Positions 875 to 45,107 are shown, numbered from the stretch's first letter. The stretch: DNA of 64,000 bases from an uncultured Flavobacteriales bacterium (GCA_937974275.1 CALJIF010000041.1:36498-100497); one strand, 5' to 3'. Numbers and translations: made by a program. The notes: generated from the sequence alone by a model not told the origin.

Positions 875-1849
875 TTACCAGCCCAGTATCCATGCAAAAA
901 TCAGCGGAGCCACAATAGTAGCATCCGACTCCACAATGTATTTCGGAGTATGAATATCCAATTTGCCCCAGGTAATTTTTTCGTTCGGAACAGCACCTGA
1001 ATATGAACCGTAAGAAGTGGTTGAATCAGAAATCTGACAGAAATAAGACCAGAACGGAACATCATGCCATTCCAAATCCTGATACATCATTGGCACAACA
1101 CAAATAGGAAAATCTCCTGCAATACCACCACCAATCTGGAAGAATCCAACACCTTTTCCGGATGAATTCTTTCTGTACCAGTCGCTCAGCCAAACCATGT
1201 ACTCAATTCCGCTTTTCATGGTCGAAGCCTTGATTTCATTCTTAATGACATAAGAAGCGAAAATATTTCCCATGGTTGAATCTTCCCATCCCGGAACCAC
1301 GATCGGCAAATTCTTTTCTGCCGCAGCAACCATCCATGAGTTCTTCGGATCAATTTCGTAGTACTGTTCCAATACGCCCGAATTAATCATTTGATACATG
1401 AATTCGTGCGGGAAATAACGCTCGCCAGTATCATCGGCCTTTTTCCACAACGCGTGAATATGTTTTTGTAAACGACGGAATGCTTCCTCTTCGGGAATAC
1501 ATGTATCCGTAACACGATTAAGACCATTCTCCAAAAGCTGCCATTCTTCCTGTGGTGTTAAGTCGCGATAATTCGGAATACGACGATAGTGCGAATGTGC
1601 AACCAGATTCATCAAATCTTCTTCGAGGTTTGCACCGGTACAAGAAATGATTGCAATTTTATCCTGACGAATCATTTCTGCAAGAGAAACACCTAACTCA
1701 GCAGTGCTCATTGCACCTGCAAGAGAAACAAGCATTTTTCCACCTTCCAGCAAATGGGTTTCATAACCTTTAGCAGCGTCTTTTAAAGCAGCGGCGTTAA
1801 AATGACGGTAGTGATGTTCGATGAATTGAGAGATAGGTCCTTTGTTCAT
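875..1849 (-). CDS. Deoxyhypusine synthase-like protein (homospermidine/deoxyhypusine synthase family)
   Basis: 324 aa. Family-typical segments: ...ISCTGANLEEDL..., GGGIAGDFPICVVP, WGKLDIHTPKYIVESDATIVAPLIF. Confidence 0.8.
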   Translation of the reverse strand: MNKGPISQFIEHHYRHFNAAALKDAAKGYETHLLEGGKMLVSLAGAMSTAELGVSLAEMIRQDKIAIISCTGANLEEDLMNLVAHSHYRRIPNYRDLTPQEEWQLLENGLNRVTDTCIPEEEAFRRLQKHIHALWKKADDTGERYFPHEFMYQMINSGVLEQYYEIDPKNSWMVAAAEKNLPIVVPGWEDSTMGNIFASYVIKNEIKASTMKSGIEYMVWLSDWYRKNSSGKGVGFFQIGGGIAGDFPICVVPMMYQDLEWHDVPFWSYFCQISDSTTSYGSYSGAVPNEKITWGKLDIHTPKYIVESDATIVAPLIFAWILGW

Positions 1850-21902: not shown

Positions 21903-22475
21903 ATGACCGCATTAATGGCGAATGAGCAAAACAGATTGTTAGAACAAACGCTTCTGAAGGAGCGCGGCAAGCTGCTGGAATTTATAAAACGCCGTATCCC
22001 AACCGATGAAGACCCTGAGGATGTTCTTCAAGATGTTTTTCACGACTTCACGGAATACTTAAGAATGGAGAAAGTCGTTGATCGCGTTTCGGGATGGCTT
22101 TATCGTGTAGCGAGAAATAAAATTGCCGACTTGTTCCGAAAACGAAGAACCGAATCGTTGGAGGCCCGTTACGAAGGATTGAATGATGAAGGCGATGAAG
22201 GTTTAACCTTAAATGATTTGTTGCCAGATCCCAATGCCGGAGCTGATGCGGCGTATGCACGACGTATCATCATGAACGAACTGATGAGCGCTCTGGATGA
22301 ACTTCCTGAAGAACAGCGCTATGTGTTCTGGGAAAACGAAGTTGAAGGCAGAACATTCAAAGAGTTATCGGAAGAATCCGGAGTTCCTATGAACACCTTA
22401 TTGTCGCGGAAGCGTTACGCTGTTTTGTTTTTAAGGGAACGGTTAAAAGAATTGTATCAAGATTTAAACTCCTGA
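21903..22475 (+). CDS. RNA polymerase ECF-type sigma-70 factor
   Basis: Region 2: DVLQDVFHDFTEYLRMEKVVDRVSGWLYRVARNKIADLFRKRR. Region 4: LPEEQRYVFWENEVEGRTFKELSEESGVPMNTLLSRKRYA. Confidence 0.85.
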   Translation: MTALMANEQNRLLEQTLLKERGKLLEFIKRRIPTDEDPEDVLQDVFHDFTEYLRMEKVVDRVSGWLYRVARNKIADLFRKRRTESLEARYEGLNDEGDEGLTLNDLLPDPNAGADAAYARRIIMNELMSALDELPEEQRYVFWENEVEGRTFKELSEESGVPMNTLLSRKRYAVLFLRERLKELYQDLNS

Positions 22476-22478
22476 GCC

Positions 22479-22823
22479 ATGAAGTGGATATTAAAAATTA
22501 TCGGAGGAATTATATTGTTCACAGCATTTGCCTTTGTCTTGGGCTGGGTAACGATGTGGTTATGGAACGAATTGGTTCCGGGCTTATTTAACGGACCAAC
22601 AATTCGTTACTGGGAAGCTGTTGGATTGATGGTGTTGGGGCGTTTGTTGGTAGGAGGATTTAAGGGAGGCGGGCGTTGCAAGTGCGGACACTCCGGCAGC
22701 GGACGCGGAGGTTACTGGAAGCAACGTTGGGAACAGAAAATGGAAAACATGTCGCCGGAGGAACGAGAGAAATTCATTTCCGGAATGCAGAAATGTTCGT
22801 GGTGGGAGAAGAAGGAGTGTTGA
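22479..22823 (+). CDS. Small 2-TM membrane protein with a Gly-rich segment and a Cys-rich cytoplasmic tail; candidate cognate anti-sigma or regulator
   Basis: It starts 4 nt after the sigma-factor stop. Two hydrophobic helices, then GGRCKCGHSGSGRGG...CSWWEKKEC (four Cys). Confidence 0.45.
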   Translation: MKWILKIIGGIILFTAFAFVLGWVTMWLWNELVPGLFNGPTIRYWEAVGLMVLGRLLVGGFKGGGRCKCGHSGSGRGGYWKQRWEQKMENMSPEEREKFISGMQKCSWWEKKEC

Positions 22824-22988: not shown

Positions 22989-23012
22989 CAATTTTGTTGT
23001 TATGACAATAAT

Positions 23013-23048
23013 AAAGGGCGAACCGTGATGTTCGCCCTTTATTTATTT
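23013..23048. terminator. Bidirectional rho-independent terminator
   Basis: aaagggcgaac-cgtgat-gttcgcccttt followed by ATTTATTTT, immediately after the stop of the minus-strand gene 23048-24499. Confidence 0.65.
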
Positions 23049-24499
23049 TACTTCTTTCTTGTCAGCGCAAATACAATTAGTGCGGTGGTTGCGATTGTCA
23101 TTAAATAAGCTGAGAATGGCGTTTGCTGAGATTCAGATGTTGTCGGAGTGAAATTAGCCGGAGGAGCGATGGAACCTTGATCCGCTTTTTTTCCCTTCAA
23201 ATAACGATTGTATTCAGCCGGATAAGAACGATGCTTTTCAATATCACGACCTGTTAACCACTGGTAAGTCCACATTTCATTCCAACGACGCTGTCCTAAA
23301 TCACGCACATACTTTTGTCCTTCTTCACAATCGAACTCGCCCGTTGCAGGATTCGTCAGTACGTAACGAGCCTGGTAGTTTTGCTTGTTCGGTGTTTCCT
23401 GGAACATTAAATCCTGTGGAAAGTTCACACGATCGTAGGTTACGTGTAAACGCGTGTAATACGCCTGCCCGGTAACACCGCCCCATTGATTAGCAACCAG
23501 CCAATCCACTCCGGCCTGCTGGAATTCTGCAAACATTGGAGGAGGACCAACGCATGGGTCGCATTTCATTCCTGCATTCAAACTCACATCCCAAGCGTAT
23601 TCCAGGAACACTACATTTTTTCCTTCGCGCTTCCACGCACGGTTGTACAGGTCACGATAAAATTCACCAAACTCTTCGCGAACAAATAAAGGAACATTAT
23701 AATTCGTTGGCACCAATGCCGTACGGTAGTTTGTTGTCTCAATTCGCCCTGATTTAGAGAACGCATGCACTATCATATCCTGAGGTCCGTTAGCGTTAGC
23801 CATTCCCAAACGAATCGGCAACATAAATCGTGGAGACTCGAAAGAAATTTGCAATGGACGTAAAGGCACTGAACCCGCGGCTTTGTGCTGGTCCATATTC
23901 ACCTTCACCACAAAAAACTTCATATTATTTTTGATATACGGATCTAGCACTTCTTTCGCGCCTTCAGGGATTTTGTAGCCGTTATCCGTCAACCACATTT
24001 CCAATCCGTTCGATTCTTTAGCAGATAGAATAAGTATATCATACTCACCAACATTATATTTCGCTTCGATAGTTACTTTATAATCCTTCTTCTCCTCTAT
24101 TTCCATATTTTTCATACCGGCACTCTCTTGTCTGCTGGAAGGCACTGCGGCAATAGCCACATCATCGTAGGCATAATTCCAACACGGATTTTGGTCGTAA
24201 TATTCTACTAGTCTCGGTGCAGAATACGCGTCCAACTTATCGAACAAGAGGCGATCGACCACTTTAATATCTTTCTCCTGTAATACAACAGGCACAGGAA
24301 CCACCATTGCAAAATCTTTTACATCACCCTGAAAGTCGGACGACATAGTTATGGTGTTTTTGTCGCCATTGCGAACGATAATCACTTGTGAGGTTTTGTT
24401 GAACAGTTTCGTATCCGCCTTTGCGACATAAAATCCGCAGAATGCATATAAGGAAGCAACTCCTGTGATTAATGCGATTGAAAATAATATACGTTTCAT
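23048..24499 (-). CDS. Hypothetical exported protein with an N-terminal signal peptide and a single C-terminal TM anchor (possibly DUF2330-like; family assignment uncertain)
   Basis: 483 aa. MKRILFSIALITGVASLYAF N-terminal signal. C-terminal ...TPFSAYLMTIATTALIVFALTRKK is a hydrophobic helix plus a basic tail. No catalytic motif recognised. Confidence 0.55.
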   Translation of the reverse strand: MKRILFSIALITGVASLYAFCGFYVAKADTKLFNKTSQVIIVRNGDKNTITMSSDFQGDVKDFAMVVPVPVVLQEKDIKVVDRLLFDKLDAYSAPRLVEYYDQNPCWNYAYDDVAIAAVPSSRQESAGMKNMEIEEKKDYKVTIEAKYNVGEYDILILSAKESNGLEMWLTDNGYKIPEGAKEVLDPYIKNNMKFFVVKVNMDQHKAAGSVPLRPLQISFESPRFMLPIRLGMANANGPQDMIVHAFSKSGRIETTNYRTALVPTNYNVPLFVREEFGEFYRDLYNRAWKREGKNVVFLEYAWDVSLNAGMKCDPCVGPPPMFAEFQQAGVDWLVANQWGGVTGQAYYTRLHVTYDRVNFPQDLMFQETPNKQNYQARYVLTNPATGEFDCEEGQKYVRDLGQRRWNEMWTYQWLTGRDIEKHRSYPAEYNRYLKGKKADQGSIAPPANFTPTTSESQQTPFSAYLMTIATTALIVFALTRKK

Positions 24500-24518
24500 G
24501 ATAGTTTAGTTTAGAAGG

Positions 24519-25388
24519 TTATTTAATCCATTGAAATTTATTTCCGGGAAAATATTTATCGAGTACCGGCACCAACATCGACATAAAGAAGAGTGCCCAA
24601 ATTGGTGCAGTATGTACGAATAGTTTTGTCGCTATAAGAAAGGCCAACACACCCGTAACTACTGACCAAATAAGACGAACTTTTTGTGAAGAAGGTGTTG
24701 CCATCGGATCCGTGATCATGAAAAACGAGAACAAGAGCAACGAACCTGTATTAAGTTGGTGAAAGAAAAAATCAGCCGGCCATCCCTGATAAACAACATG
24801 TCTGAAAAAACTTAGTGAGAGAAATGTAATGAGGAAACCGAAAGCTGTTTCAAGTCGCTTTACACGCAACAACACCAGCAGCCCGGTGATACCGACAAGA
24901 AATAATATCAGTCCTTCACTTCCCCATTGTCCCGGAGAAATCCATGCGTCGTCGGTAATTAAAATGGCAGCTACCATACCAAAGTTGGTTGGATTAAAAA
25001 CGTGTTTGCCGTTTACTCTGAACACAAACTTGCTAACGATGGCAAGCGAGGCTGCCAGTACCAAAGTCCATATACTGTTTGCCTGAAACATCAGACATAA
25101 GCTCAAACCTGAAATCAGTGCACTTTTTAAACCTGACCAAGGCAAACCTTTTAAATGAATCCAAACGCCTTGCACCAACATAGTTGTAAGCAACGTGACG
25201 TTCAACTTCATCAGGGAAACATCCCAGTTAAGTAATGTGTAACCATACACCAGAAATGTGATTTGAAAAAGGATCTGATAATGTCTTGGATCAGAAGAAA
25301 ACCAAGTGTAAATGGACCGAATGTTACTTAATGGTCCTGATCGAGGTGAGAGTGTTACGACATCCATGGTATAGAGATTTATACCCAT
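24519..25388 (-). CDS. RnfD/NqrB-family-like polytopic membrane protein (short, orphan homologue)
   Basis: By-eye alignment to E. coli RsxD: FNPTNFGMVAAILI ~ FNPAMIGYVVLLIS; FSFFMITDPMATPSS ~ GAFFILTDPVTASTT; RLIWSVVTGVLAFLI ~ RLIFGALAGLLVWLI; VPVLDKYF ~ VPLIDYYT. No other rnf/nqr genes are nearby. Confidence 0.6.
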   Translation of the reverse strand: MGINLYTMDVVTLSPRSGPLSNIRSIYTWFSSDPRHYQILFQITFLVYGYTLLNWDVSLMKLNVTLLTTMLVQGVWIHLKGLPWSGLKSALISGLSLCLMFQANSIWTLVLAASLAIVSKFVFRVNGKHVFNPTNFGMVAAILITDDAWISPGQWGSEGLILFLVGITGLLVLLRVKRLETAFGFLITFLSLSFFRHVVYQGWPADFFFHQLNTGSLLLFSFFMITDPMATPSSQKVRLIWSVVTGVLAFLIATKLFVHTAPIWALFFMSMLVPVLDKYFPGNKFQWIK

Positions 25389-25433: not shown

Positions 25434-25910
25434 TTAATTGGGATCCGTTATAGCCAGTTTTCTAACCTTATATCCGGCAGAGGAATAGATGTATATATAA
25501 TAAATACCGATCGGATAGTTGGTGCAATCAACCTGAAACAAGTACTGATTAAAACCAACGAAAGAATTGTTGTAATACAATTTGCCGTAGCGATCAATAA
25601 TTTGAACGTAGATTGGTTCCGGATACCACAAAAGCACATTCACATTGATGTAATCAATAGGCGGATTGGGCAAAAAATCGAAATCCAAAGGATCGCAAAT
25701 TCCATACACAAAGGTTTGTACACCGGCATTACGGGAGAAGCAATCATTACGATAAGTAATACCATCACATCCACATACCGGTTCCCATCGAGGATCGCAG
25801 TATGCTCCGTATTGAATCATTGATGAATCGACACATTGAGCTTGCAACACCCTTGGTGCAGAAAACAAAACAAACACAATTGTCAGATATTTTATTACCC
25901 GTAATTTCAC
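25434..25910 (-). CDS. Secreted Kazal-type protease-inhibitor-domain protein with a T9SS-like C-terminal domain
   Basis: Signal peptide. Kazal signature PVCGCDGITYRNDCFSRNAG. The C-terminal ~80 aa resemble a T9SS C-terminal domain (FLPNPPIDYINVNV...GIYYIYIYSSAGYKVRKLAI). Confidence 0.6.
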   Translation of the reverse strand: MKLRVIKYLTIVFVLFSAPRVLQAQCVDSSMIQYGAYCDPRWEPVCGCDGITYRNDCFSRNAGVQTFVYGICDPLDFDFLPNPPIDYINVNVLLWYPEPIYVQIIDRYGKLYYNNSFVGFNQYLFQVDCTNYPIGIYYIYIYSSAGYKVRKLAITDPN

Positions 25911-28346: not shown

Positions 28347-31300
28347 CTACATATTTCTTCTATACTGTCCACCAACCTCAAACAACGCCTCCGTTATCTG
28401 ACCTAACGAACAAACCTTCACGGCCTCCATCAATTCAGTAAACACATTACCATTACGAATTGCGGTATCTTGCAGTCTCGACAATGCAACTTTAGAGTGC
28501 TCTTCTCTAGACGCATGTAGATTCTTCAGCATACTTATTTGGTACTCCTTCTCTTCAGTTGTAGCCCTGATAACTTCGGCAGGCACAATTGTCGGTGAAC
28601 CTTTTGATGACAAAAATGTATTTACTCCAATAATTGGATATTCACCGGTATGTTTCAGTGTTTCATAATACAGCGACTCCTCCTGAATCTTCCCGCGTTG
28701 ATACATGGTCTCCATTGCACCTAACACACCTCCGCGCTCGCTTATTTTATCAAATTCTCCAAGCACAGCTTCCTCAACCAACTCGGTTAACTCCTCAATA
28801 ACAAACGAACCTTGAAGAGGATTCTCATTCTTCGCTAATCCCAACTCACGATTGATAATAAGCTGAATAGCCATTGCACGACGAACACTTTCTTCAGTAG
28901 GTGTTGTAATTGCCTCATCATATGCATTAGTGTGAAGTGAATTACAGTTATCGTATAACGCGTACAACGCTTGCAATGTAGTTCTGATATCGTTAAAGTC
29001 AATTTCTTGGGCATGCAAGGAACGCCCGGATGTTTGAATATGATATTTCAACATCTGAGAACGTTCGTTCCCCCCGTATTTCAGCTTCATTGCCTTTGCC
29101 CAAATTCTGCGTGCAACACGACCCAATACAGAATATTCCGGATCCATGCCGTTACTAAAGAAAAACGATAAGTTCGGCGCAAAATCATCAATGTGCATAC
29201 CGCGTGACAGGTAATACTCAACGAATGTAAAACCGTTCGAAAGTGTTAGTGCAAGCTGTGTTATAGGATTAGCACCCGCTTCTGCAATGTGATAACCTGA
29301 AATCGAAACAGAATAAAAATTGCGAACCTTGTTGTCAATAAAATATTGCTGCACATCACCCATCAATCGCAACGAAAATTCAGTCGAGAAAATACAGGTA
29401 TTCTGAGCCTGATCTTCCTTCAGAATATCTGCCTGAACCGTACCTCGAACCTGTGATAATGTTTCCGCTTTAATCTTTTGATAAACATCCGCCGGCAATA
29501 CTTGATCCCCGGTAACACCAAGCAACATTAAACCCAAACCGTCGTTTCCTTCAGGAAGCTGTGCTGCATTATACTTCGGCCGTTGTACTCCTTTTGCGTC
29601 CCACAACGCCTGAATTTTTTTCTCAACTTCAGCCTCTAAACCATTGGCTTTAATGTACAACTCGCACTGCTGATCAATCGCTGCATTCATAAAAAAGGCT
29701 GCGATGGTAGGAGCCGGCCCGTTAATCGTCATGGATACAGATGTCTTCGGACTTGCCAGATTGAAACCGCTATACAATTTTTTAGCATCGTCCAAACAAC
29801 AAATGGAAACACCTGAATTTCCAATTTTACCGTAAATATCGGGGCGGTGATCAGGATCACGGCCATATAGTGTTACGGAATCAAATGCTGTAGAAAGACG
29901 ATGTGCAGGCATACCAAGTGACACGTAATGGAAACGCTTGTTGGTTCGTTCCGGTCCTCCTTCACCTGCAAACATTCGCGTCGGATCTTCTCCTTCACGC
30001 TTGAATGGATAAATTCCTGAAGTGTATGGAAATTCTCCAGGAAAGTTTTCTTGACCCATCCAGGTAAGCAAATCGCCCCATGCTTGATAACGAGGTGAAG
30101 ACACTTTCGGAACCATCGTGTGTGATAATGATTCGTAGTGCGTTTTTATTTTCACCTCTTTATCTCGAACCTTAAAGATGTAATACTCATCCTTATACTG
30201 CTGCGCTTTCGCACTAAATGACTCGATCATCTTCATGTTCTTCGGATCGAGCTCGAGTAACAATTGATCGTATTGATTTTGTAACAACTTCAACAATTCA
30301 CTATTGAGATCCTTTTGCTCTGAACGTAATGTTGAAATTGTCGTGTGTATTGCATATAACTTTTGCGCTATTGCCGACTGATCCTGCAAACGACGATCGT
30401 AAGCGCGGTTATTTTCTGAAATTTCCGACAAATAGCGTGTTCGTGCAGGAGGGATGATGTAAACCTTTTCAGACATCTCTTTAGAAATCTGAAATGTCGA
30501 TTCCAAATTAGCCCCTGTTCGCTCAACAACTTTATCAATCACTGCACGGTACAAACGATTCATTCCGGGATCGTTGAACTGGGAAGCAATAGTGCCGTAT
30601 ACCGGCAACTGCTCGTCGTCTGTTTCCCAAAGTTGATGATTGCGCTTAAACTGCTTCTTCACATCACGCAACGCATCCAAAGCACCGCGTTTATCAAACT
30701 TGTTTAGTGCAATGATATCCGCGAAATCGAGCATGTCTATCTTCTCCAACTGAGTTGCGGCGCCGTATTCAGGAGTCATTACATATAAACTGACGTTGCT
30801 GTGTTCAATAATCTCAGTATCACTCTGACCAATGCCGGATGTTTCCAAAATAATTAAATCGAACTGCGCCGCCTTCAACACATCAACCGCTTCCTGCACG
30901 TGTTTCGATAATGCAAGATTACTCTGTCTGGTTGCCAGTGAACGCATATAAACACGCGAGTTGCTAATCGCATTCATCCGAATTCGATCTCCCAATAATG
31001 CTCCACCTGTTTTGCGTTTCGATGGATCTACTGAGATAATGCCGATGTTTTTGTCTTTGAAGTCTACAAGAAATCTTCTAACCAATTCATCAACCAACGA
31101 CGACTTTCCCGCTCCGCCTGTACCTGTAATTCCAAGCACAGGAGTTTTGCTTTTTTGCGCTAACGCTTTGATCTCTGCTGCAGCACCACCATGTTGCTCA
31201 GAAAAATTTTCGAAAGCAGAAATAAGTCTTCCTAATTCTTTATGATTCTTCGGATCAAGATGTTTGACTTCTCCATTCAAATGAACGCCGGTAGCAAAAT

Positions 31301-31730
31301 CACACTTCTCCAGCAAATCATTAATCATTCCCTGCAAACCCATAGCACGCCCGTCATCAGGATGATAGATGCGCGTAATACCATAATCGTGCAACTCCTT
31401 AATCTCCTCGGGAAGAATTGTTCCGCCTCCGCCACCAAATATTTTGATCTGCTCGCAACCTCTTTCTTTCAATAGATCATACATGTATTTAAAAAACTCC
31501 ATGTGACCACCCTGATACGATGTGATAGCGATTGCATTCGCATCTTCCTGTATGGCACAATTCACAATTTCTGCAACACTTCGGTCGTGACCCAAATGAA
31601 TTACCTCAGCACCACTCGACTGAATAATTCTGCGCATAATATTTATTGCTGCATCATGACCGTCAAATAATGAAGCGGCTGTTACAATTCGAACTTTATT
31701 CTTCAGTTGATAAGGCTTTACCTCTTGCAT
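28347..31730 (-). CDS. icmF: Fused isobutyryl-CoA mutase (IcmF-type: N-terminal B12-binding domain + MeaB-like GTPase + acyl-CoA mutase catalytic domain)
   Basis: 1127 aa. N-terminal B12 domain with DxHxxG (FDGHDAAIN). P-loop [12 protein letters not shown] with MeaB-like switch regions. The C-terminal ~600 aa is a methylmalonyl-CoA-mutase-like TIM-barrel substrate domain. Confidence 0.85.
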
Positions 31731-40013: not shown

Positions 40014-40514
40014 ATGTACAAAAAAAACCTCTCAGCAGCGGCTTTGGCGTTGTGCATTACTGCGTTTTCGCAGGCACAATCAATTGCCCCAAGCGTCATT
40101 TCGAGTGGTGGTGAATTCTTTTCGAATTCTTCCGGTATGATAGAATGGACCGTTGGTGAACCGATGATTGAAACGTACTCTGCGAGTGGTTTCTTTATCA
40201 CTCAAGGTTTTCATCAGCCCGAGGATGTTAACTCTTCAATTGGAGAGACCGGCATTCCCGTAAACGCGTCCGTTTATCCTAACCCCACCACTGACTTTGT
40301 CAACATTCAATTTGGAGAAGACGTATCCGGTCTTTTCGTAATTGATGTTTACAATGCTCTCGGTCAGCGTATGCAGACCGAACAATTTTCGGCTTCTTCA
40401 TCAGGCAGAACTCAAATTAACCTAAGCGGTTACGCTACCGGAGTGTATTTCATTCAGGTACGTGCTGTAAATGGTAAGGCAAACACCACATTCAAAATCA
40501 CTAAAAATTCTTAA
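40014..40514 (+). CDS. Small secreted protein consisting of a short N-terminal module plus a T9SS C-terminal sorting domain
   Basis: Signal peptide. The C-terminal ~85 aa are T9SS-C-terminal-domain-like (VYPNPTTDFVNIQF...GVYFIQVRAVNGKANTTFKITK). Confidence 0.6.
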   Translation: MYKKNLSAAALALCITAFSQAQSIAPSVISSGGEFFSNSSGMIEWTVGEPMIETYSASGFFITQGFHQPEDVNSSIGETGIPVNASVYPNPTTDFVNIQFGEDVSGLFVIDVYNALGQRMQTEQFSASSSGRTQINLSGYATGVYFIQVRAVNGKANTTFKITKNS

Positions 40515-40526
40515 CCCATCCACTTT

Positions 40527-42440
40527 ATGAAAAAAGTATATACACTGGTTGCTGCGTTGATGTTAGCCTGGGGCGTTTATGCTCAGGCACCAGCCAGTAT
40601 CAAGTACCAGGGTGTAGCTCGTAACTCAACTGGAGCACCAATTGCTAACGGCACAATCACGGTACAATTTGATATTCACAGCGGTTCTGCTTCAGGCCCT
40701 GTAGTATGGACAGAAACTCACACAGGTGTTACAACCAACCAGTTTGGTTTGTTCAACATCAACATGGGTTCGATCACCGCAGGTTTAGATACTGTATTCT
40801 CTGCAGGTCAGGAATTTTTGGAAGTATCCGTTGACTTCGGTACAGGTTTAACTTCCATGGGAACTTCACAGTTCTTATCAGTTCCTTATGCATTGTACGC
40901 ACAAAACTCAGCGAATCCGGGTCCACAAGGTCCTGCAGGTCCACAAGGTCCTTCAGGTGATCCTGGCGTTGCAGGTCCAACTGGTCCTTCAGGTGATCCG
41001 GGCTTGACAGGTCCAACAGGTCCTCAGGGCGATCCGGGAATTGCAGGTCCGACAGGTGCAACAGGTGACACAGGTCCTACAGGAGCAGTTGGCGCAACAG
41101 GTGATATCGGACCAACAGGAGCGCAAGGTCCTATTGGATTAACAGGTGCAACGGGTCCGCAAGGAGCTAACGGGGCGACCGGGGCAACCGGTGCAGCTGG
41201 AGCTAACGGAGCAACCGGTCCGGTTGGTCCTACAGGTTTAACAGGTGCTGCGGGTCCTGCAGGTCCTACCGGTGCTAATGGAGCTAACGGTGCAACGGGT
41301 GCTACAGGAGCTACAGGTGTTACAGGTCCAACAGGCCCGGGCGGCGTAACAGGAACAACAGGTTACCATCCTAAGTTCCTTTCGGCTAACACACTTGGTA
41401 ACTCTATCATGCAAGAGAACACGAATGGTAACATTGGTGTTAATATTTCACCACTAATCCAGTATCGCATGTACGTTTATTCTCAACAATTGACAGCAAA
41501 CGGTGATGGACAAACTACATTGTTTGGCTATCGTACGCGCGACTCCCAAAACGACGGAACAGGTTATGCGCAGTCTGTAGCAAACGACGCTACTCGCGGA
41601 TTCAACTTCTGGGGTGACCTCTATACATTTGGCGTTGGTGGTTGGAACTATAACGACTACACTCGTTGCGGTGGTACATTAGGTGCCGAAGTTTCAGGAA
41701 CCTATTGGGGCTCTATGGGCTACAGAAGTTCAGGATTGCTGAATTATGGTGTTTATGGAACGTCTGCTTACGCTAACGGTGGTGGTCGCATGGCGAACGG
41801 CAACTTCAATGGTATTGGTGGCGCATTCTACGGCGATATGATGGGTGGTTGGGTTCGCGGTGATATCGCAGGTTTAACTACTATGGGTTCTATGTATGCT
41901 GCTTTGAACGTAGGTAACACATACAACTACGGTTACCATGCAGATCTTGTGAACACAGGTGCTGCTATCACTCCTGCTTACGCGGTTACTTCTACTACTG
42001 TAAAAGTATACGACGACGGTTCCGCTCAATTGAACAACGGCACTATTCGTGTAAACTTTACTCCTGAATACGCTGCATTAATTAAAGGAAACGGTAAGCC
42101 GACTATTACTGTTACTCCACAGGGTCAGTGCAACGGTTTGTACATTGTTTCTGTTGACGAAAACGGTTTCAACGTAGCTGAATTGAATAACGGTTCATCT
42201 AATGTTGAATTCTCTTGGATCGCTGTTGGTAAGCGTGTTGACGCTGCACAGAACAGCACTCCTGAGCAGTTGACAAACCGTAACTTCGCTGAAAACATTC
42301 AGGGTGTTATGTTCAATGAAGGTAACACTTCACAGTCCGGAACTCCAATGTTCTGGAATGGTACTAGCTTCCAGTTCACTCCTGCTCCTGTTGCTCCGAA
42401 AGGGCCAAAAATTGAGCCGGGCGTAGCTCCTAGAAACTAA
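40527..42440 (+). CDS. Collagen-like triple-helix repeat protein with a Bacteroidota adhesin/tail-fibre-like N-terminal domain and a Gly/Tyr/Asn-rich C-terminal domain
   Basis: Signal peptide. N-domain [41 protein letters not shown].... About 50 uninterrupted G-X-Y triplets ([28 protein letters not shown]...), then a ~360-aa G/Y/N-rich region. Confidence 0.8.
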
Positions 42441-42621: not shown

Positions 42622-43542
42622 ATGAAGCAACTTATTCTTTTTATTTCTGCTTGCATTGCTCAAATCTGCACAGGTCAATCTGTTGCACCAACCGTTAGCA
42701 CCTCATACTTCCAATATGTCGTACAAACTCTTGCGCATGATTCAATGCAAGGTCGCTTACCGGGAACACATGAGGAAAAAGTTGCAGCGAATTTCATCGC
42801 ACAAGAATTTCAAAAGGCCGGTTGCGCTCCTGTAAAAGAGAATCAATGGCTATTCCCCTTCACCTATGTAAACCCGGACACCGCTCTCGTTCAATCAGCA
42901 GGAAATGTAATTGGTAAAATAGAAACCAAACATAAAAAGTGCATCGTTGTATCTGCTCATTATGACCATATCGGTTACGGCAAATTCCACTCCAAGGATC
43001 CGTTCTCCAGAAAAATTCATAACGGAGCAGATGATAATGCCAGCGGTGTTGCCATGATGTTAGGACTCGCGGCTTATTGTAAAACCAAAATCGACCAACT
43101 TCAGTATGACGTCATCTTTGTCGCATTCTCCGGAGAAGAAGATGGTCTTTGGGGTGCACTAGCATTACTACAGCAAAATATCATTGATACGTCAACAATT
43201 GTTGCAAACATTAATTTGGACATGGTAGGTCGCTTAGATATACTAACGCCTATTTTGGAAATTCAAACCAAACACGCAGGTTCCTGTATTTTCCAAGTTG
43301 CACAAACAGTTAAGTCGGATAAATTCAAAACAATTGTTGCGGAAGACAAAGTGCGCTTCGGCTCAGACCATGCTATTTTTAATGAAAACAGGATTCCTGC
43401 GATACTCGTTTCTACCGGACTTGGCAGTCACTACCACCGCCCCAGCGATGATGCCGCGACCATCAACTATAGCGGCATGATGGCTATCGCTGCGGAAATT
43501 CAAAAACTTATTCTAAACGGAGAACTACTCCGTTGTCAGTAA
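42622..43542 (+). CDS. M28 family zinc aminopeptidase (secreted)
   Basis: Signal peptide MKQLILFISACIAQICTG. HYDHIGYG, GADDNASGVAMML, FSGEEDGLWGA are M28 metal-ligand motifs. Confidence 0.75.
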   Translation: MKQLILFISACIAQICTGQSVAPTVSTSYFQYVVQTLAHDSMQGRLPGTHEEKVAANFIAQEFQKAGCAPVKENQWLFPFTYVNPDTALVQSAGNVIGKIETKHKKCIVVSAHYDHIGYGKFHSKDPFSRKIHNGADDNASGVAMMLGLAAYCKTKIDQLQYDVIFVAFSGEEDGLWGALALLQQNIIDTSTIVANINLDMVGRLDILTPILEIQTKHAGSCIFQVAQTVKSDKFKTIVAEDKVRFGSDHAIFNENRIPAILVSTGLGSHYHRPSDDAATINYSGMMAIAAEIQKLILNGELLRCQ

Positions 43543-45107
43543 ACAATAATTTGTTTAGACTTTCGGGAAGTACCTGTATTCAGGCTAATCGTATAGGTGC
43601 CCGCAGGCATATCTGCAGTCGCAATTTCCATACGATACATTCCTGCACCTTGAGCTCCTCTATTCCACTCTTTAACCAAACGCCCATTTTGATCAAACAG
43701 TTGTAATACTACCGAACTATTCTGAGGAATGAAATAACTCACATTAACAGGAGTATTACCCGCTGTCGGAACAGGGTAAGGATCGTATAACTGAGGTGTT
43801 CGAATAATGTTCTGATAGGCGTTTTGTTGAACAGAATTCAATACTACGCTATCAATAATTATATTTTCATCACCTGCCTGATAAGGCAAATACGCGTAAT
43901 AGATCACCATCATTTCATCATCCGTAGCTTCGCCCGCAGTAACCAATTGCGGAGGATTATTCGGATTGTTCGGATTATTCGCAGTGTTGTCGTAATACGC
44001 ACTTGCATAAACCACGCTGTTTCCGGGAATCACGACAGGCTGCCGGTAAGTGTAAAATCCTTGCCAGTGAAAATTCCAATCAGGAATACTGATCAATGGT
44101 ATGGTATCTCCGGATGGATCTACAGCCCATGACCAAATCGACTTACCGATCAAATGCATGTGCGGAGCAACACTTATCAATGTTAAAGGTGAAGAGACAG
44201 CCACCTGCGCGTTAAACGTACGCGTTGTATTCGCAGGAATAACAAGAGGTCCATTGGTTAATGATGTGGTGTGATTGATAGCCGGCGCTAAAGTCACATT
44301 ACGAACTACTCCGCTTGAAAAAGTAAATCGCACATGAGTACTGTCGGTCTGATTAAACGTACCGGACGGATAATGAATTTGCATAATGATGTAACTGTTC
44401 GCTTCCAGTTTGATACCCATATTTGGCGGCAGTTCATAAACACCTTGACCAGGAACCCAACCCGCTATAAGTGTTGCAGTATTTGAACCTACACCACCAA
44501 AACTGGTATACCCCGGCCCCGGATCATTATTATCCAATGTCACGCAAGTATTCTGCACATCCTGATACACGAGCACGTGGTGTACAATCGGTCTGTTTCC
44601 CGGAACAACTTCAACTTTAGTTATGTATTCATCTTGCGTAATACCTGATGGTACAACAAAACAACGGTACAAATCTGTGGCAGTATTCACGGTGTACGTT
44701 TGCATTTGAGCAGACAAATCCGGATTCGTAATAGCTGGTCCTGCTGTATAAGTTGGCGCCGGCGGAGCATTCGCAATGTTTCCCGATGGAAATCCTGCAG
44801 TTACCCAATTATCAATCGTTGTTATTTCCTGCTGTGTTAAAGCTCGTTCATGGGCAAATCTGGTATATGCGGTATCAGGAGGCCATGGCGGCATTCTGCG
44901 CATAGTTACCGCATTCTGAATATTTGGTGCAACATTAGCTGCATCGTTATAGGTAATCAATGAAAATGGTGCAATACCGCCCGGATGGTGACAATTGGTA
45001 CATTTCCCGTAAAGAATATTCGCCACATCATCTGCCCATGTCGGACTCTGAGCATCTACAGTAGAAGCAATAGTTGCAAGAACAGCAACGAGTAAAAACT
45101 TTTTCAT
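43536..45107 (-). CDS. Secreted copper type II ascorbate-dependent monooxygenase-like (PHM/DBH-like) protein with an N-terminal CxxCH motif and a T9SS C-terminal domain
   Basis: CuH-like IVHHVLVY + MQIHYP. CuM-like APHMHLIGKS + EATDDEMMVIYYAY (compare PHM HTHHLGK and TTDEMC). NFHWQGFY is also PHM-like. N-terminal ILYGKCTNCHHPGG. C-terminal T9SS domain (SVVLQLFDQNGRLV...GTYTISLNTGTSRKSKQIIVY). Confidence 0.65.
   Translation of the reverse strand: MKKFLLVAVLATIASTVDAQSPTWADDVANILYGKCTNCHHPGGIAPFSLITYNDAANVAPNIQNAVTMRRMPPWPPDTAYTRFAHERALTQQEITTIDNWVTAGFPSGNIANAPPAPTYTAGPAITNPDLSAQMQTYTVNTATDLYRCFVVPSGITQDEYITKVEVVPGNRPIVHHVLVYQDVQNTCVTLDNNDPGPGYTSFGGVGSNTATLIAGWVPGQGVYELPPNMGIKLEANSYIIMQIHYPSGTFNQTDSTHVRFTFSSGVVRNVTLAPAINHTTSLTNGPLVIPANTTRTFNAQVAVSSPLTLISVAPHMHLIGKSIWSWAVDPSGDTIPLISIPDWNFHWQGFYTYRQPVVIPGNSVVYASAYYDNTANNPNNPNNPPQLVTAGEATDDEMMVIYYAYLPYQAGDENIIIDSVVLNSVQQNAYQNIIRTPQLYDPYPVPTAGNTPVNVSYFIPQNSSVVLQLFDQNGRLVKEWNRGAQGAGMYRMEIATADMPAGTYTISLNTGTSRKSKQIIVY

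Follow-up and report, generated by a model that had tools for sequence, protein, structure and literature searches.

A short RnfD-like membrane protein without the flavin-bearing linker, and its DUF2330 partner, in an uncultured Flavobacteriales bacterium

We analyzed a 64,000-nucleotide stretch of DNA from an uncultured Flavobacteriales bacterium (GCA_937974275.1, CALJIF010000041.1:36498-100497; hereafter, the window), in which a gene for a short RnfD/NqrB-like membrane protein is followed by a gene for an exported protein of the DUF2330 family. Three open reading frames (ORFs) run in the same direction on the minus strand, at 25434-25910 (158 amino acids, aa), 24519-25388 (289 aa) and 23048-24499 (483 aa); the second and the third encode the two proteins of interest. 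The spacer between these two genes (24500..24518, minus strand), read directly from the sequence, is 19 nucleotides (nt) long; an initial annotation of this DNA had correctly described the genes as co-directional and had given the gap as 20 nt. Such a short spacer implies that the genes are co-transcribed, and a terminator scan found no terminator-like site within it. The same scan detected a hairpin (14-bp stem) followed by its T run at 23010..23043, located between the DUF2330 gene and the convergent gene of a 114-aa membrane protein (p114), and this hairpin is likely to be the operon terminator. The GC content is even throughout the region of the two genes.

The membrane protein (24519..25388, minus strand) was matched by the Pfam profile PF03116 (NQR2_RnfD_RnfE) at 63.9 bits (E 2.1e-17; cut-off 27.7 bits). 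This was the sole significant domain in its 289 aa, and the lengths in the family are about 273-332 aa. Among the sequences of solved structures, RnfD of Azotobacter vinelandii was matched at E 1e-12. The assignment of the gene to the RnfD/NqrB superfamily in the initial annotation, for which a PF03116 search had been proposed as a check, is therefore supported. The scores against the curated NCBIfam models of the canonical subunits were, however, below the cut-offs: 46 bits versus 207 for rnfD (TIGR01946), 37.9 versus 415 for RsxD (NF002011), and 21.1 versus 414 and 16.5 versus 350 for NqrB (NF003756 and TIGR01937, respectively). No match to the exact sequence of the window protein is on record. 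It should be noted that the start codon is uncertain: an alternative start at Met8 (25365-25367) would give a protein of 282 aa, the homologue P0001, with 89% identity, begins at the equivalent of Met8, and so does the gene called in the related locus L002 (282 aa).

A search for relatives of the RnfD-like protein returned 4861 proteins at E<=0.001, a number that may include canonical RnfD and NqrB. An alignment of 26 RnfD-like sequences that are 47-60% identical to the window protein (A2) contains 49 invariant columns. The family has signatures of its own, namely D-x-R-x-[YF]-Q, W-x-SPGQWG and a C-terminal F-x-W. The first signature is represented in the window protein by DPRHYQ (25275..25292, minus strand), at the cytoplasmic start of helix I; D33, R35, H36 and Q38 of this motif are invariant in A2, and the D, R and Q are retained in a distant clade from other phyla, where the family signature recurs. 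The RnfD-like proteins are a distinct, ancient subfamily found in several phyla, and not a stray copy of RnfD. The term "orphan", used for this gene in the initial annotation, is accurate with respect to the missing Rnf/Nqr partners (see below) and undersells what is a widespread subfamily.

The fold was assessed using the RnfD-like domain of a natural fusion protein from Flavitalea (P0408), which is 40% identical to the window protein. In the AlphaFold2 (AF2) model of the fusion, this domain has a predicted local distance difference test (pLDDT) score of 80-96. Foldseek matched the domain to RnfD chains with E values from 1.8e-8 to 1.6e-5 and TM-scores (TMt) of 0.57-0.65, and to NqrB with TMt of approximately 0.44. 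Urea transporters ranked next after RnfD and NqrB (3k3g, probability 0.98, TMt 0.43), followed by AmtB/Rh proteins (probability 0.3-0.75 for AmtB). On the basis of the homologue model, the window protein is predicted to have the ten-helix fold of RnfD, with two inverted five-helix repeats. Both half-helix motifs are present and invariant in A2: FNP (24990..24998, minus strand), which was aligned to the RnfD chain 7zc6_D, and FFMITDP (24705..24725, minus strand), which was aligned to FMATDY of 7zc6_D and to FFIATDP of 8ahx_D. N132 of the FNP motif aligns with Asn124 of Clostridium tetanomorphum RnfD and, because FFMITDP aligns with FMATDY, D227 corresponds to Asp248 of the same protein; both N132 and D227 are invariant in A2. 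In C. tetanomorphum RnfD, Asn124 and Asp248 flank the riboflavin ring and mark a putative Na+ site (PMC9588780). Five further residues (R35, S89, K120, R178 and R238) are common to the window protein and Escherichia coli RsxD.

The alignment of the window protein to the RnfD chain 8ahx_D consists of two blocks (residues 45-143 against 32-133, and 151-281 against 210-338); therefore, RnfD residues 134-209 have no counterpart, and only residues 144-150 of the window protein stand in their place. In the alignment with E. coli RsxD, the five-helix linker of approximately 80 residues is replaced by an extracytoplasmic stub of 11 residues, DAWISPGQWGS (24918..24950, minus strand), and the W-x-SPGQWG signature within this stub is kept in Bacteroidota and in the distant clade alike. 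The five-helix linker of C. tetanomorphum RnfD bears the threonine that carries flavin mononucleotide (FMN) and covers the FMN cavity, and its hairpin occludes the outer half-channel (PMC9588780). The FMN-attachment residue of E. coli RsxD, T187 (in DGISQATPLD), falls within the missing block; since the linker is deleted, the flavinylation threonine is absent from the RnfD-like protein. The initial annotation had considered covalent FMN doubtful because the flavinylation position appeared to read DPMATPS. The conclusion was sound and the reason was not: DPMATPS was rejected as a flavinylation site, as it belongs to FFxxTDPxT, a conserved motif in RnfD's C-terminal half, and the loop with the true site is deleted as a whole. 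The flavinylation motif D..[ST]G[AS][TS] was found in none of the 120 RnfD-like proteins and in 1 of the 269 DUF2330 proteins; no CxxCH haem motif was present in either of these sets. Hence, covalent flavin and haem c were rejected for both proteins, and covalent FMN is not expected on the RnfD-like protein, judging from its sequence.

The partner protein (23048..24499, minus strand, 483 aa) had been described initially as containing no recognizable domain; it is, in fact, a clear member of DUF2330 (PF10092), with a score of 259.5 bits versus a cut-off of 24.7 bits (E 4e-77) over profile positions 5-278 of 279. At 50% identity, 5076 clusters match the DUF2330 family with E<=1e-3, and 698 clusters do so with E<=1e-30. 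A literature search on DUF2330, PF10092, COG4402 and IPR019283 found no paper. Searches of the Protein Data Bank (PDB) with phmmer and with a profile (hmmsearch) returned no sequence relatives even at E<=10, and Foldseek against the PDB gave no match at E<=0.001 with either the model of the single protein or the DUF2330 region of the modeled fusion. No thioredoxin-like assignment was obtained with Pfam or with Foldseek against the PDB. The possibility that DUF2330 is a divergent RnfG/NqrC was considered and rejected (hhalign against E. coli RsxG, probability 0.1%). The AF2 model of the window DUF2330 protein is mixed alpha/beta, with pLDDT of 74.7 and a predicted TM-score (pTM) of 0.72; in addition to a disordered variable loop (108-138, pLDDT <50), it contains a long helix at 392-416 and a transmembrane (TM) helix at the C-terminus (462-481).

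Both ends of the DUF2330 protein are as the initial annotation had them. The signal peptide (aa 1-19; 24443..24499, minus strand) corresponds to a helix at residues 2-17 of the model and ends in a small-x-small site, and the C-terminal TM helix (aa 462-480 in the sequence; 23060..23116, minus strand) is followed by R-K-K and the stop codon. The small-x-small site lies directly before FCGFYV, which fits signal peptidase I and not a lipobox, and the pattern (A/G/S)-x-(A/S/T), with the cleavage position immediately before FCGF, holds throughout the family. Thus, DUF2330 proteins are probably cut by signal peptidase I, which would leave a free N-terminus F-C-G-F-Y-V. The predicted mature N-terminus of the window protein, FCGFYVAKAD with Cys21 (24413..24442, minus strand), is near-invariant in the family and invariant in two of the alignments (A1 and A3). 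The F, C and G of FCGF are retained in more than 100 of approximately 118 aligned representatives, FCGFYV is found in both clades, and the first ten residues past the predicted cleavage site are the most conserved part of the protein.

Five cysteines of DUF2330 (C21, C106, C313, C316 and C391) are conserved down to approximately 35-40% identity. Cys106, in a PC motif (24182..24184, minus strand), is located directly before the variable disordered loop and is a cysteine in 131 of 136 aligned representatives. The CxxC motif CDPC (aa 313-316; 23552..23563, minus strand) is invariant in Bacteroidota and is present in about 90% of the aligned representatives. A minority subfamily (P0313, P0335 and P0362) is without CDPC. 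The members of this subfamily have variant N-termini (TCTCF, MCGGMF and MCTMF), and the N-terminal cysteine, the equivalent of C106, and C391 are kept. The C-termini of DUF2330 proteins vary by lineage, and three types were found: (i) a TM helix with a basic tail, the type of the window protein; (ii) a Cys-motif followed by a TM helix and an Arg-rich tail, as in P0339, which is named in its source "MYXO-CTERM domain-containing protein"; (iii) a tail of the form LTGW...WWxxLW. The alternative tails were seen among P0321, P0322, P0337-P0339, P0341, P0347 and P0373-P0375, the anchoring device being swapped between lineages. In longer DUF2330 proteins, the only additional domains were TPR or an AMP-binding fragment, in single cases each.

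The association of the two genes was examined in two sets of loci. The first set was obtained by a scan with the DUF2330 alignment, one genome per species, and consists of 80 Bacteroidota loci from Flavobacteriales, Chitinophagaceae, Crocinitomicaceae, Cytophagales and Saprospirales. The second set was obtained by a metagenome scan seeded with distant DUF2330 proteins and consists of 80 high-GC loci whose proteins are about 40% identical to the window protein. In 78 of the 80 Bacteroidota loci, DUF2330 is directly preceded, on its own strand, by an RnfD-like sequence. In 14 of those 78 loci, the two are fused into a single ORF of 763-798 aa (one of which ends at a contig edge). In the distant soil clade, an RnfD-like match was found in each of the 68 loci in which the first DUF2330 ORF is preceded by 300 nt or more. 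Look-ups from the RnfD-like side gave the same result, with DUF2330 as the next gene in five of five cases. All-against-all clustering of the neighboring ORFs in the 160 loci of both sets revealed no third conserved gene.

A search with a fusion ORF returned at least 120 gene-called proteins in which PF03116 and PF10092 are fused, including one from Flavitalea sp. BT771, which is cultured. Hidden Markov models confirmed both domains in the fusion representatives of Binataceae and Myxococcota; an Acidobacteriota cluster member was assigned by its fusion length alone (761 aa). Unfused forms occur in Gammaproteobacteria. One other candidate, P0122 (782 aa), was rejected as a fusion because it consists of two tandem DUF2330 copies. 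The fusions retain the internal signal peptide together with the AxA site before FCGF, which fits a cytoplasmic C-terminus of the RnfD-like part followed by export of DUF2330. In some genomes, one RnfD-like gene precedes two to six tandem DUF2330 paralogues. Examples of such arrays, with 3 to 6 paralogues that are 55-65% identical, are found in metagenome-assembled genomes of Bacteroidia (L004 5183-11509, L007 9932-17593 and L171 4959-8927).

These results leave little doubt that the RnfD-like protein and DUF2330 form a self-contained membrane module of two genes, co-inherited in a fixed order and frequently fused. The system is uncharacterized and widespread. The initial annotation had suggested a domesticated RnfD-like protein that works with an extracytoplasmic partner, and had proposed a comparison of gene order in other genomes; the near-universal synteny, which extends to gene fusions, strongly reinforces this suggestion. 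A role in surface modification, mentioned there as an option, found no support.

The expected partners of RnfD and NqrB were searched for in the window and beyond. Queries with E. coli RsxA, RsxB, RsxC, RsxG, RsxE and ApbE (phmmer) gave no match in the window at E<=10, and the only match to RsxD was the RnfD-like ORF itself. Pfam scans detected no Rnf, Nqr, ApbE or FMN_bind genes in the flanks. The absence of Rnf/Nqr partners from the window was thus noted correctly in the initial annotation, and the search for a nearby ApbE that it had proposed found none in the window. Neither in the 160 related loci nor in the Pfam-annotated neighborhoods were rnf or nqr genes ever found beside the pair, and no ApbE was present in the annotated neighborhoods of relatives.

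The remaining ORF of the co-directional group (25434..25910, minus strand) is located upstream of the RnfD-like gene at a distance of 45 nt and encodes a small Kazal-like protein of 158 aa with a C-terminal sorting domain of the type IX secretion system (T9SS; matches to Kazal_1/2 and Por_Secre_tail). It occupies the equal position in the closest relatives (L002-L007 and L171) and is missing from most of the 160 loci; it is accessory only. On the other side of the operon, and convergent with the DUF2330 gene, there is a gene for an extracytoplasmic function (ECF) sigma factor (21903..22475, plus strand; matches to Sigma70_r2/r4), which is followed after 3 nt by the p114 gene (22479..22823, plus strand). 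The tail of p114 is rich in cysteines (CKCGH...C...C), the protein has no Pfam match, and it is possibly the anti-sigma factor of the adjoining ECF sigma. The two genes are kept downstream of DUF2330 in L002-L006. An ECF sigma gene is located near the RnfD-like/DUF2330 pair in 14 of the 80 Bacteroidota loci, and in Chitinophagaceae an ECF sigma gene and a gene for an LTXXQ (CpxP/Spy-like) protein are found downstream of the pair (11-14 of the 80 loci). No link to an ECF sigma was seen in the loci of the distant clade. These neighbors hint at a control of the pair by envelope stress that is not general; in the window, the ECF sigma and p114 are context only, and possibly a regulator.

The surrounding window is an ordinary Bacteroidota chromosome, in which Pfam scans detected many T9SS cargo proteins and a TonB-dependent receptor. 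Several other genes were observed in passing. A 1127-aa protein (28347-31730, minus strand) is an IcmF-like fusion of B12-binding, MeaB G-protein and methylmalonyl-CoA mutase domains, according to the Pfam matches of the near-identical gene in L002. An unusual bacterial secreted enzyme (43536-45107, minus strand) resembles copper type II ascorbate-dependent monooxygenases (PHM/DBH N- and C-terminal domains) and carries a T9SS sorting domain. A 637-aa protein with collagen triple-helix repeats (40527-42440, plus strand) is preceded by a small T9SS-tailed protein (40014-40514, plus strand), and the gene at 875-1849 (minus strand) encodes a bacterial deoxyhypusine synthase homologue (PF01916, E 2e-39).

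With regard to function, we tentatively favor a relay in which electrons reach the cysteines of DUF2330 by way of a non-covalent flavin or quinone. In the RnfD-like core, which has no extracytoplasmic FMN-bearing linker, the outward cavity would be uncapped, and DUF2330 would be seated on the outer face of the core, above the cavity opened by the loss of the FMN lid. A non-covalently bound flavin or quinone may be held in the retained pocket of the core, and electrons would pass through the core between the membrane or the cytoplasmic side and the DUF2330 cysteines. The pair could then act as a minimal extracytoplasmic thiol/redox relay that needs no covalent flavin, comparable in its logic to DsbB-DsbA or to the two-subunit "Nqr/Rnf-like" complexes. 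The latter provide a precedent, since they too have a membrane subunit that is without the flavinylation threonine and serves an extracytosolic partner (PMC11334425). We favor the relay because all characterized relatives are redox subunits, the residues that flank riboflavin persist, and the partner is rich in cysteines.

Several observations weigh against such a relay. There is no module for electron input: neither the gene nor the operon nor any conserved neighbor provides an NAD-binding domain, an iron-sulfur protein or a cytochrome. The Asn/Asp pair has equally been proposed as a Na+ site and, therefore, does not discriminate between redox and ion conduction. The CxxC motif is missing in the minority subfamily, the DUF2330 cysteines could be purely structural disulfides, and the RnfD-like protein has a single invariant cysteine (C98). 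The AF2 model of the fusion P0408, made from a shallow multiple sequence alignment, gives no usable interface between the two parts (pTM 0.50), and the linker and the FCGF segment have pLDDT <50 in this model. Finally, the one-to-many ratio of RnfD-like to DUF2330 genes fits an enzyme-substrate relationship at least as well as a 1:1 complex.

The alternative that survives best is a channel or transporter without redox chemistry, which works with an enzyme or a receptor on the extracytoplasmic side. The core would conduct an ion or a small molecule toward DUF2330, away from it or as controlled by it, having reverted to, or kept, the channel function of the fold (similar to the one in urea transporters and ammonium transporters, or to the "Na+-translocating subunit" of Rnf), and DUF2330 would be located at its outer mouth. 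This reading is possible, albeit doubtful when taken alone; it is nearly as likely as the relay because there is no electron-input module and because the residues in question are also the putative Na+ site. Consistent with a channel, the structural matches that follow RnfD and NqrB are the urea transporter 3k3g and AmtB/Rh, Asn and Asp, which have been proposed to bind Na+, are invariant, and all recognizable redox features are absent. Furthermore, RnfD consists of two inverted five-helix repeats, as do the urea and Amt transporters, and its linker hairpin occludes the outer half-channel (PMC9588780), so that the outer vestibule should open when this linker is deleted. Conversely, no substrate can be named, none of the characterized PF03116 members is a plain channel, transport-related neighbors are not conserved in the 160 loci, and a channel leaves the conserved cysteines and the free N-terminus of DUF2330 unexplained.

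It is improbable, although less so than the readings discussed further below, that the RnfD-like protein is a maturation or anchoring factor, which would process, modify or position DUF2330 without being a permanent partner in a complex; its target might be, for example, the invariant N-terminus F-C-G-F once the signal peptide has been cleaved. In several genomes, two to six tandem DUF2330 paralogues share a single RnfD-like gene, which is compatible with such a helper, as are the peak of conservation in the ten residues after the predicted cleavage site and the fusions, which tether the helper straight to the signal peptide of its substrate. In addition, the DUF2330 C-termini vary by lineage in the manner of sorting signals, and include tails of the type named MYXO-CTERM. 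However, the RnfD fold has no known or evident catalytic motif, the conserved residues of the presumed helper are mostly those of true RnfD and not new ones, and there is no precedent for such a factor.

It is very unlikely that the protein is a spare or alternative subunit for a canonical Rnf or Nqr complex whose genes lie elsewhere in the genome, with DUF2330 as an unrelated neighbor or an add-on. Source annotations do name the protein RnfD or NqrB, and many Bacteroidota have nqr and rnf operons elsewhere in the genome. Nevertheless, the curated rnfD, RsxD and nqrB models are missed by a wide margin, the FMN required for the electron path of Rnf/Nqr is absent, near-universal synteny and fusions link the gene to DUF2330, and in the 160 loci it is never located beside rnf or nqr genes. 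Decay of an RnfD gene to a pseudogene, or chance adjacency to an unrelated exported protein, which could be suggested by the length of 289 aa versus about 350 aa in RnfD and by the missing central segment, is refuted by the 49 invariant columns over 26 sequences at 47-60% identity, the same signature in a clade from other phyla, the 4861 relatives at E<=0.001 (possibly with canonical RnfD/NqrB among them), the confident fold prediction for the P0408 domain, and the synteny and fusions.

A broader and more speculative proposal, which we consider rather unlikely as a whole, is that the pair represents a type of envelope machine not recognized before: an RnfD-derived core without covalent flavin would couple the membrane or the cytoplasm, by a flavin, quinone or ion path, to an extracytoplasmic cysteine enzyme of a new fold. 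If true, this would be the first task outside Rnf and Nqr for the RnfD fold and would provide a function for a DUF with thousands of members, for example, in a new transmembrane thiol-redox or stress-response pathway of Bacteroidota, Acidobacteriota, Myxococcota, Binatota and Gammaproteobacteria.

With the exception of one predicted derivative that is NAD-linked and has two subunits, RnfD/NqrB proteins have been known only from the Rnf and Na+-NQR pumps. The subfamily described here has shed the covalent FMN and the pump partners, has kept the buried Asn/Asp pocket, and is locked to a single extracytoplasmic partner. It represents a natural "minimal" RnfD, which is relevant since the role of this subunit in ion translocation versus electron transfer is still debated. 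The pairing also provides the first functional context for the DUF2330 family, and implies that the names currently assigned by automatic annotation to the RnfD-like proteins ("RnfABCDGE type electron transport complex subunit D" and "NqrB") are misleading. Cultured carriers exist (among them Flavitalea sp. BT771 and Ferruginibacter sp. SUN106); therefore, the system is experimentally tractable.

Comparison with known systems shows several partial similarities. The window protein shares with RnfD and NqrB the ten-helix fold, the FNP and TDP half-helix motifs, the Asn/Asp pair and the five further core residues. In contrast to those subunits, it has neither the FMN linker of about 80 residues nor the flavinylation threonine, no genes for RnfA/B/C/E/G or NqrA/C/D/E/F accompany it in the operon or the window, and its pairing with DUF2330 is obligate. 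Urea transporters and Amt/Rh proteins are similar at the level of the fold only, in overall transporter architecture, and, like the window protein, are without a flavin-bearing lid; however, there is no detectable sequence similarity, and those channels are not paired with DUF2330. A functional analogy, and no more than that, can be drawn to DsbB-DsbA and VKOR, where, as here, an exported partner with Cys/CxxC motifs is coupled to a protein integral to the membrane. VKOR-type systems occur also as fusions. There is no homology in this case; the window membrane protein has no conserved cysteine pairs, and DUF2330 did not appear thioredoxin-like in our searches.

Among the systems described so far, the two-subunit "Nqr/Rnf-like" complex (Meheust/Huang/Light, mSystems 2024) comes closest; in this complex, a membrane subunit without the flavinylation threonine serves an extracytosolic partner (PMC11334425). 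The differences concern both subunits. The membrane subunit of that complex is fused to a cytosolic NAD-binding domain (PF00175), which the window protein does not have, and its partner is a flavinylated FMN_bind protein similar to NqrC/RnfG (PMC11334425), whereas the partner here is DUF2330, with no flavinylation motif; furthermore, the window contains no ApbE-like ORF (phmmer with E. coli ApbE/Ftp, E<=10). The two systems nevertheless have the same basic layout, namely an NqrB/RnfD-like domain without the flavinylation threonine and an adjacent, membrane-anchored extracytosolic partner.

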